Source: Acidobacteriota bacterium (lineage in GTDB: Bacteria; Acidobacteriota; Thermoanaerobaculia; Multivoradales; J023). From it: 11,927 nucleotides of DNA. The stretch spans positions 1 to 11,927 of the forward strand of contig JBCCOR010000071.1 in assembly GCA_039025295.1 (NCBI GenBank), read 5' to 3'. Positions 9,885 through 11,927 of the stretch are shown one piece after another (position 1 is the stretch's first letter; every line of letters begins with the position of its first letter). The notes under the pieces are model-generated. The model did not search any database. It saw nothing but the letters and a program-made list of their open reading frames with translations, and was not told the origin of the DNA. The translations under genes and the position numbers were made by a program.

Positions 9885-11788
9885 GTGATCCGCATCCGCT
9901 TTCTGCCGCTGTTCCTTCTCGTTGCCCTGCTGGCCGTCGTCACGGCGACCGCAGGCATCAGCGCGCCGCCGCCGCTGTACGAAAACCCGTTCAAGAATCT
10001 GCCGCAGCACGTGCTCGATGAACTCGCCGCCGGCGGCGAGGTGACGATCGACCACCAGTACGAACACGGCGTCCGCACGAAGTCGACCTACCGCGGCGCC
10101 GACTGGCATCTGCTCGATCGCACGGTCGACCCGTCGGGCGTTGTGCTGTCGGAGCGCGACGCCGCCGGGCTCGAAATCGCCTACGAATACGATCAGCTTC
10201 ACCGCGTGACAGCCGTGAAGCCGAGCGCCGCGCACGGCGGCGCGTGGGTGCAGATCCGGCACTCGGTCGTCTCGACCGGTCCGCGGATGGAACTCTTCTA
10301 TCGCCCGAACGGCTCGATGACCGCGACGCCGATCGCGCGCGAGGAGCTCTACTTTGACGGCTTCGGCCGGCTATGGAAGGAGCGTCGCTTGATGCCCGGC
10401 GCTGTGTGGGCCGAACGGATCACCGAGCGCCATGCCTCCGGCGAGCTGAAGCGCGTCTCGACGTGGCACGGTGGTAGCAAGCCCGCGCGCTGGACGACGT
10501 ACAGCGACTACGACGCCTTCGGTCGCCCCGGTCGCATCACGCAGCCCGACGGCGCGCGGGTGGATTTCGCCTACCGCGGGATCCGCGAAGTTGTGCGGAC
10601 GCAGAAGATCGCGACGAGCGAGTATGGCCAGACGGCGTATTCGACGATCGAGCGCTTCGACGCCCGTGGCCGGCTGCTGCAGGTCCTCGAGCCTGAAGGG
10701 GGCGCCGAGGCGAGATACGTCTACGACGTCGCAAACAGGCTACGCATCGCGACGGTCAAGCCGCGCGGCGGCGGCGTGACCCAGACGCGACGGTGGGATT
10801 TCGACGGTCGCGGCTTCCTGCTGTCGGAGGCGCATCCCGAGAGCGGTCGCACCGAATACGGCCTGTACAACGCCCGCGGCCGCGCGCATCGCATCATCGA
10901 CGGCACGAGCGACCTACTCTTCGGCTACGACAGCTTCGAGCGGCTGACGCAGGTGCGCGAGACGGGCTCCGATCGGCCGTGGCAGTCGTTCCGCTATGGC
11001 ACCTCAGGGCGCTCAACGAATCGGCTGGTCGAGGCCATCGGCCACAACTGGATCCGCATTCCCTGGTCGCCGTCGCTTCTGGCTGACGTCGCGGTCACCG
11101 AAACGTACGCGCACGACGGCCCGGGCGGCGCCGTGTCGAGCAAGACGACTGCGGTCAGCGGCGGGCAGCGCTTCACGCAGGCGTGGCAGCACGATGATCT
11201 TGGCAACGTCACCAAGCTCACGTATCCGCGCTGCACGCACGCGGCGTGCGTCAGCGACGGCGCGGGGCCATCGAGCGCGCAGACGCGTCATTACAGCCGC
11301 GGCTACCTCGCGTCGATTCCAGGTCTGTTGAACGGGATGTCGTACGACGTCAACGGCATGGCGACGAAGATCCGCCATGCGAGCGGCCTGCGCGTCGACG
11401 TCTTACCCGACGCGAGCGGCGTGCCGCGTCCGCGCGACATTCGCGCGTCGTGGCCGGCCGGCTGGCCGGGTGCTTCGGAGGTGTCGAAGAACCTGCTCCG
11501 GGCCGACGATCCGCTCTTCGTCGCGCAGGGCGTCGCGGCACTTGGCGAGCACCGCTTCGACGGCTCGGGCAACGTCCGTGCGCGCGGCGCGGAGTGGTAC
11601 GCGTTCGACGGCGCGAACCGGCTGCGTTCCTACAACTTGGGCAGCGGCTCGTCGCAGGCGTATCGATTCGACGGCTTCGGCAACCTGAACCGCATCACGA
11701 CCGACGGCGTGCACAGAACGCTGCCGATGCTGACCGCCAAGAATCGCCTGATGGCGGGCGGCTATGACGCTGCGGGCAACCTGACGTC
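9885..11788 (+). CDS. RHS/YD-repeat protein (polymorphic-toxin family), N-terminal part with Sec signal peptide. Truncated after about 634 codons by an IS insertion. The frame has no stop before the window end, so it is absent from the ORF track.
   Basis: Translated by hand from GTG 9885 (preceded by TGA 9876-9878 in frame): VIRIRFLPLFLLVALLAVVTATAGISAPPPLYENPF..., a clear signal peptide. Repeated YD/RHS motifs follow: EIAYEYDQLHRVTAV, YFDGFGRLWKE, YSDYDAFGRPGRITQPDGARVDFAYRG, ERFDARGRLLQVLEPEGGAEARYVYDVANRLRIATV, WDFDGRGFLLSEAHPESGRTEYGLYNARGRAHRIIDGTSDLLFGYDSFERLTQV, YRFDGFGNLNRITTDG, GGYDAAGNLTSD. The frame was checked at several line boundaries (9960, 10020, 10980, 11340, 11760). Repeat character is lost after approx. 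11789. Confidence 0.75.
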
Positions 11789-11927
11789 TGACCTTGCCCC
11801 GATTTCGTGGACAGTTGACTTACGCGGCCTGCACCGCCTTCTGCCATTTTGCCTCGTAGTCGGCTGGGCTGAGGAAATCGAGCGACGAGTGCAGCCTGTG
11901 GCTGTTGTAGAACAGTTCGATGTACTC
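11789..11927 (-). mobile_element. Terminal part of an IS3-family insertion sequence (IS407-group-like terminal inverted repeat). The element continues beyond the window.
   Basis: The putative terminal IR tgaccttgccccgatttcgtggacagttgac (11789-11819) resembles IS407-group ends (TGACCTGCCCCC....TGGACA, starting with TG). Immediately inside it lies the transposase 3' end. The boundary is uncertain by a few bp. Confidence 0.65.
11820..11927 (-). CDS. 3' end of an IS3-family transposase (OrfB / rve integrase core C-terminus). Partial: the start lies outside the window.
   Basis: Reverse complement of 11927 down to 11820 reads EYIELFYNSHRLHSSLDFLSPADYEAKWQKAVQAA*. The motif (I)E.FYN..R.HS.L...SP..(F/Y)E is the conserved C-terminal signature of IS3-family integrase-type transposases. 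Stop TAA = complement of 11820-11822. Confidence 0.75.
   Translation of the reverse strand, partial: EYIELFYNSHRLHSSLDFLSPADYEAKWQKAVQAA

Follow-up and report, generated by a model that had tools for sequence, protein, structure and literature searches.

The question raised by this locus is what has become of an RHS/YD-repeat gene whose reading frame runs off the end of its contig. The window, that is to say, the whole stretch of DNA analysed, is an entire contig of 11,927 nt from an Acidobacteriota MAG, and its last base (11927) sits 139 nt inside an insertion sequence (IS). The RHS frame starts at GTG 9885 and remains open through 11927 with no stop codon. In GenBank, the product (MEM6454335.1) is a "hypothetical protein, partial" of 681 aa, annotated through to the contig end. 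We consider it very probable that an IS3-family element, whose end is visible here, has truncated this RHS paralog at codon 635 and that the gene is thus an IS-disrupted pseudogene. The features on which this reading depends are listed in Table 1.

Table 1. Features of the RHS/IS locus and the large proteins encoded elsewhere in the window.
Feature	Position	Strand	Details and basis
Shine-Dalgarno-like sequence GGGAG	9871..9875	+	9 nt 5' of the GTG start; read from sequence
Predicted Sec-type signal peptide	9885..9953	+	residues 1–23, MIRIRFLPLFLLVALLAVVTATA followed by G; hydropathy and A-x-A heuristic
RHS/YD-repeat toxin gene, 5' 62%	9885..11788	+	634 codons + 2 nt, ~15 YD repeats; AAF772_04500 / MEM6454335.1
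RHS/IS junction	11788..11789	.	W-A-G-E in the paralogs, IS terminus in the window; alignment A1 and IS-end comparisons
IS terminal inverted repeat	11789..11819	+	5'-TGACCTTGCCCCGATTTCGTGGACAGTTGAC; reverse complement of the IS right end (transposase orientation)
Spurious extension of the RHS ORF	11789..11927	+	46 codons, antisense of the transposase; within the 681-aa GenBank protein
IS3-family transposase (OrfB C-terminus)	11820..11927	-	last 35 codons and stop, cut by the contig end; translation, profiles, tblastn
Other large window proteins (n = 3)			GenBank MEM6454330, MEM6454333 and MEM6454334; exact look-up

The start at GTG 9885 is fixed by an in-frame TGA (9876–9878) two codons before it. 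The N-terminus, MIRIRFLPLFLLVALLAVVTATA followed by G, contains two Arg residues, an 18-residue hydrophobic core (Kyte-Doolittle values up to 3.1) and, by the heuristic, an A-x-A site, and the same layout is present in nine paralog N-termini. The RHS protein is therefore predicted to be Sec-exported. Such an N-terminal Sec signal resembles that of WapA and is unlike the arrangement of PAAR/VgrG-linked T6SS Rhs proteins; T6SS genes are absent within the window. The Pfam RHS_repeat profile (PF05593) matches the ORF with an E-value of 1.7e-25 (89 bits, cutoff 22), and TIGR01643 matches with an E-value of 2e-12, above its curated cutoff. A loose regular expression gives 16 overlapping YD motifs, equal to ~15 repeats, the last of which (YDAAGNLTS) is interrupted by the junction. 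These results agree with the first-pass annotation, which had described a clean, stop-free RHS frame (open here over 9885–11927) with a signal peptide and more than 10 YD repeats. Profile search of the window protein (P0024) revealed no Rhs-associated core (TIGR03696) or DPxG motif, because the core position is downstream of the break, and the window contains no C-terminal toxin domain.

The nearest homologs of the ORF, at 76–88% identity, all carry AAF772_ locus tags and are therefore paralogs from the same MAG, whose proteins are numbered MEM6454330–MEM6457749. Ten distinct signal-peptide-bearing N-termini (P0001, P0007, P0017 and P0019–P0025) place the family at no fewer than 10 Sec-signal RHS/YD-repeat copies in the MAG. 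Its fragments lie on short contigs: no fewer than 17 cover the 5' or middle part of the gene, and no fewer than 11, which differ in their C-terminal tips, cover the 3' part. The core profile TIGR03696 matches the paralogs P0018, P0004 and P0008 with 44–51 bits (cutoff 32.5). In the paralogs, the end of the Rhs core reads ...NNPxxLxDPDG and is followed by varied toxin tips, which include Tox-REase-7, Ntox33, PF15529, PF14436 and others. In intact Rhs/Tc-type proteins, a YD-repeat shell encloses a variable C-terminal toxin, which the Rhs-associated core frees through self-cleavage. The earlier assignment of the gene to the RHS polymorphic toxins is thus supported, and the ORF is a member of a Sec-signal-bearing RHS/YD polymorphic-toxin family. 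The length of over 1300 aa that had been given as normal for RHS proteins does not apply to this family. P0018 has 987 aa without its first 42 residues, and together with the overlaps among other fragments it gives a full-length protein of ~1,015–1,030 aa; more distant homologs have 977–1,093 aa.

Comparison of the window protein with its paralogs (alignment A1) revealed a gap-free match at 76–88% identity up to residue 635 (...YDAAGNLT-S). RHS homology ends at nt 11788, and the third base of codon 635 (TCT) is supplied by the IS. Beyond this position, five paralogs read ...GNLT[A/S]WAGExYGFD... and continue for 37–394 more residues, and the window reads DLAPISWTVDLRG... instead of WAGExYGFD. 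The retained part amounts to 634 codons and 2 nt, in line with the ~634 aa first estimated, and the missing C-terminal part (~381–394 aa, about 385) extends from the end of the shell through the Rhs core to the toxin. The gene had also been called "decapitated", a term that inverts the situation, since the N-terminus is retained and the C-terminus is lost. As a candidate feature of the target, an IR-like "surrogate end" in the RHS sequence (GCGGGCAACCTGA versus TCGGGGCAAGGTCA, 8/13, matched by eye) was considered and rejected as chance-level, because a rough estimate expects such matches by chance in ~100 GC-rich positions.

The sequence that follows the RHS homology begins with the 25-mer TGACCTTGCCCCGATTTCGTGGACA (11789–11813), which occurs once in the window (0 expected, 200 shuffles). 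We scanned a degenerate form of this 25-mer against one genome per species and the JGI metagenomes. The scan returned 9 genome and 16 metagenome loci (25 in total, labeled within L001–L027), and at every one of them the match is the terminus of an IS3-type element. Across these loci, IS3-family elements carry the 25-mer at their left as well as their right termini: (i) at left ends it is followed by orfA (MAKRQRRKFTDEYKAEAVRLV...); and (ii) at right ends it is followed by the reverse complement of the transposase stop codon, the same as in the window. One identical IS end lies beside four unrelated flanks (L007, L008, L012 and L017) and the divergence starts just outside the TG; therefore, the element boundary is the position equivalent to 11789. 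Terminal inverted repeats of the IS3 family start with 5'-TG (…CA-3') (PMC6211511). The string TGTCCACGAAATCGGGGCAAGGTCA, with its near variants, can serve as an IS-terminus string for locating further copies in the MAG contigs.

Behind the terminus, translation of positions 11927–11820 on the minus strand gives EYIELFYNSHRLHSSLDFLSPADYEAKWQKAVQAA followed by a stop codon. This 35-aa tail matches rve_2 with 22.2 bits (cutoff 22), aligned to the last residues of the model, and matches NF033516 (transpos_IS3) with 25 bits (cutoff 160) at model positions 346–369 of 369. The tblastn search of the tail matched more than 5,000 plasmid records, and every annotated one is an IS3-family transposase. 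The distance between the terminus and the stop codon is 31 nt both in the window and in the related element L019. On these comparisons, the identification of the abutting DNA as the end of an IS3-family element, of which 139 nt are present, is solid. Two proposals made from the letters of the DNA were thus substantiated: that the YD-repeat character ends at about 11789 at an IS inverted repeat, where the paralog alignment stops at 11788 and the 25-mer equals known IS3 termini, and that minus-strand positions 11927–11820 encode the C-terminus of an IS3-family transposase. The blastn search of 11770–11927 against plasmids gave no match, and the tail, extended heuristically by 8 residues of a relative, had no words in common with any entry of the protein collection, which contained no annotated transposase with this C-terminus. 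In the collections searched, there was no relative of the IS above ~70% nucleotide identity. Having neither a close nucleotide relative nor a plasmid blastn match, it counts as an IS3-family element not described before.

The scan yielded full-length sequences of three relatives (L019, 1,239 bp; L021, 1,252 bp; L026, 1,286 bp). Each contains orfA and orfB, their inverted repeats match at 22–23 of 27 positions, and two of the three (L019 and L026) have an A6-7G slippery site. Their OrfB proteins score 334–380 bits on NF033516 (cutoff 160), and the target duplications are 3 bp long (GCG for L019, GGC for L021 and, inferred, ACT for L026/L020). In a partial ranking by tblastn against plasmids, OrfB of the relatives is 48% identical to IS1133, 43% to IS3 and 35% to IS1203. 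Compared with the family members IS3, IS911 and IS1133, the window itself shares the 5'-TG terminus and an rve_2-type tail, within 139 nt only; the elements with the same 25-nt terminus share a size of 1.24–1.29 kb, the orfA/orfB organization, 3-bp duplications and OrfB identities of 43–48% to IS3 and IS1133.

The first-pass annotation had called the element IS407-like. C-rich termini of a similar kind also occur in other IS3 subgroups. The resemblance of the inverted repeats is real, as the window terminus matches that of IS407A (TGACCTGCCCCCT) at 10/13 ungapped positions, with the outer TGACCT and the following C-run alike. The ISPa32 inverted repeats (TGACCTGCCCCCCGATTTCAGTACC; PMC7378034) are also similar to the window terminus. 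It does not establish the assignment: IS3 subgroups rest on ORF alignments (PMC6211511), for which the 35 aa offered by the window are insufficient. IS407A of Burkholderia has the inverted repeat TGACCTGCCCCCT and a 4-bp duplication (PMC2877748), compared with 3 bp in the relatives that share the window terminus. Because these relatives make 3-bp duplications and their OrfB proteins are nearest to IS1133 and IS3, we lean against an assignment to the IS407 subgroup.

The RHS frame remains open across the junction, and it had been proposed that this apparent continuation is just the stop-free antisense frame of the transposase. In L019, the equivalent antisense register reads GLAPILWTGSLRGW..., compared with DLAPISWTVDLRGL... 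in the window, and is open across the whole element (412 codons). This comparison confirms the proposal, and the frame beyond the junction is an accident of the GC-rich antisense transposase frame. The read-through frame explains the 681-aa length of MEM6454335.1, because the annotation ran on to the contig end. Since the L019 antisense register is open and 1,239 + 3 bp is divisible by three, an L019-like element could, in principle, insert without a frameshift and be translated along with its target gene.

According to the reading that we propose, the end of an IS3-family element abuts codon 635 within a YD repeat, with the transposase on the opposite strand. Elements of this family transpose by copy-out/paste-in. 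The 5' 1,904 nt retain the ribosome-binding site, the start codon and the signal peptide, and what they have been separated from is the toxin tip, the Rhs core and the final ~190 aa of shell. Ribosomes would pass into antisense IS sequence, so the copy would be a pseudogene unable to deliver a toxin. We prefer a simple insertion, in which the 3' remainder of the gene would lie just past the IS. The window shows one IS end; the second inverted repeat, a target duplication and any surviving toxin and immunity genes would lie past the contig end. The IS itself is probably complete and multi-copy, and a multi-copy state would account for the stop of the assembly 139 nt into it. By our own inference, a repeat would end a contig at about this depth if the assembler used a de Bruijn graph and a k near 141. 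Related JGI contigs stop 126–127 nt into their own IS copies. To extend the locus, the window proteins and the paralogs P0001, P0005, P0007 and P0008 were looked up exactly, which led to no indexed contig, and RHS-based scans of the genome and metagenome contig collections returned zero relatives and no orthologous locus.

Alternatively, the junction could be the scar of an IS-mediated deletion, an inversion or a recombination between IS copies, with unrelated DNA beyond the IS and the RHS 3' part (shell end, core, toxin and immunity gene) gone from the locus. No window feature separates such a rearrangement from a simple insertion; we regard it as rather unlikely. Four observations point toward it: (i) the 11 RHS 3' fragments that were compared from this MAG all begin at contig ends elsewhere, and not one begins at the breakpoint; (ii) P0005 and P0030 have internal deletions between repeats, which are other rearrangements in the RHS family; (iii) the two flanks of L026 do not match each other and one of them matches a flank of L020, as if the IS copies had recombined; and (iv) most IS407A copies in B. 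mallei are without matching duplications, which were lost in the same manner (PMC2877748). The missing other half is weak evidence, however, as in a fragmented MAG a contig that carried it would begin inside the repeat.

A mis-join or a minority variant, in which the IS really adjoins a different paralog, or another site in most cells, is improbable. It would be favored by the state of the family, which the assembler left unresolved on short contigs (at least 17 with 5' or mid-gene parts, at least 11 with 3' parts), by the stretch directly 5' of the junction (GFGNLNRITTDGVHRTLP...), which is nearly invariant among the paralogs at the protein level, and by the stop of the contig 139 nt into the IS, as at a repeat with k near 141. 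The RHS and IS sequences have, however, nothing in common that could cause a false overlap at 11788/11789, and some DNA molecule of the sample must therefore join RHS to IS sequence. That the same MAG has another such junction, at a different position, also argues against a mis-join. This second junction is found in P0005 (AAF772_07820, on a contig of 9,351 nt), a complete protein of 373 aa that ends ...NRLAAGG/WPYPDFVDT followed by a stop; in L001, L005 and L009, an inverted repeat of this type reads WPCPDFVDT when translated in frame 0, and the match therefore indicates that RHS-IS adjacency recurs in the genome.

The gene might instead end naturally near 11790 and encode a short YD-repeat protein, with the IS simply located downstream. 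This reading has in its favor only that no 3' part is visible, and can be taken as already refuted by the lack of a stop codon, the position of the break inside a YD repeat, the alignment of five paralogs across it with 37–394 further residues, and the lengths of the distant homologs (977–1,093 aa).

With truncation by the IS as the preferred reading, the locus can be compared with known systems. The YD repeats are common to the window protein and to other Rhs/YD toxins, such as enterobacterial Rhs, WapA of Bacillus subtilis and the TcB/TcC cocoon of Tc toxins, and the window paralogs share with them the Rhs core (...NNPxxLxDPDG) and interchangeable toxin domains. Classical Rhs proteins have ~1,400 aa, compared with ~1,020 aa here, and the window copy, because it is truncated, is without core, toxin or visible immunity gene. 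PADLOC gave no match for three proteins, the RHS product and the two large neighbors, and Rfam gave no matches across the window. In E. coli, IS of the H-rpt/ISAs1 type lie downstream of Rhs cores. H-rpt is thus also a mobile element at an Rhs locus, but here the IS belongs to a different family and lies inside the coding region of the YD shell. We regard the locus as an ordinary case of decay through IS activity, here in a polymorphic-toxin family with many copies, and what is new is an undescribed IS in a well-known family. Its main value is for annotation and bookkeeping: MEM6454335.1 is a chimera of 634 aa of RHS and 46 aa of antisense IS, and counts of functional toxins should leave this RHS copy out. 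Together, the IS and the 76–88%-identical RHS paralogs explain the shattering of the MAG into short contigs at these loci. The locus raises no new question unless the IS has a target preference.

Such a preference, for one conserved stretch of the RHS family, is hinted at by the spacing of the two junctions. The junction in P0005, which is known from the protein and not from DNA, precedes the window junction by 9 codons (27 nt), and two random insertions in a ~3.1-kb gene would be expected to fall at most 27 nt apart ~2% of the time. We consider a target preference quite doubtful. If true, an IS3-family element would be systematically inactivating the toxin arsenal of this genome, or uncoupling and reshuffling its toxin tips.

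The RHS paralog P0005, which is encoded in the same MAG as the window, enters an IS3-type inverted repeat at …RLAAGG|WPYPDFVDT*, as read from the protein, and this RHS-IS junction is positioned only 27 nt upstream of the junction in the window. P0005 also has an internal deletion between its YD repeats. The proximity of the 2 junctions could, judging from these sequences, reflect a target preference of the IS inside the RHS family.

In the deposited protein of the window RHS gene (MEM6454335.1, 681 aa), 46 residues are antisense IS sequence (11789–11927, plus-strand frame of the RHS ORF); this IS-derived stretch is an annotation artefact. 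In L019, a complete related IS3-family element, the equivalent antisense register is stop-free over all 412 codons.

Three further RHS copies of the MAG appear degraded: P0030, a "mini-RHS" of 260 aa, carries 2 internal deletions and has an N-terminus that closely resembles that of the window RHS protein (MARTRFLPLFLLVVVLAVVTAT…), and P0007 and P0023 have frameshift-like tails at their ends. This appearance may result from genuine decay, from a mixture of strains, or from collapse during assembly.

Among the loci matching a degenerate form of the 25-nt IS terminus, 6 (L007, L008, L012, L014, L017, and L023) are JGI metagenome and MAG contigs sharing one Gemmatimonadota IS3 element, and many such contigs stop 126–127 nt inside this element. 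Two other loci (L013 and L020) lie on contigs that end 186 nt into the IS. Such stops recur as a mark of assemblies that break where a multi-copy IS ends, and the window contig, which reaches 139 nt into its IS, is analogous to them. Another 6 loci (L001, L002, L004, L005, L006, and L009), from several Deltaproteobacteria, Thermoanaerobaculia, and Phycisphaerales MAGs, look by sequence like solo or decayed IS ends: the conserved terminus is followed by only a partial orfA or by none, and no matching second inverted repeat was found within 3 kb. The L001 terminus precedes a different ORF that is transposase-like.

Coordinates and identifiers of the additional features
Feature	Position	Strand	Identifier	Description
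P0005			MEM6454987.1, AAF772_07820	RHS paralog on a 9,351-nt contig
ORF tail	1195–1728	+		normal-looking composition
"DNA repair ATPase"	1906–7662	−		1,918 aa; DUF3686/DUF7902/AAA
"Flotillin-family" protein (GenBank)	7676–9646	−		656 aa; coiled-coil-rich

Elsewhere in the window, the ATPase gene lies directly downstream of the gene for the 656-aa protein that is flotillin-family by its GenBank name. No Pfam model matched this 656-aa protein at E ≤ 1, and PADLOC returned no match for either protein. The ORF tail, for which Pfam gave no significant match, terminates in a tandem QEGRQLGV-QEGRQLGV and is overlapped by spurious GC-rich ORFs on both strands.
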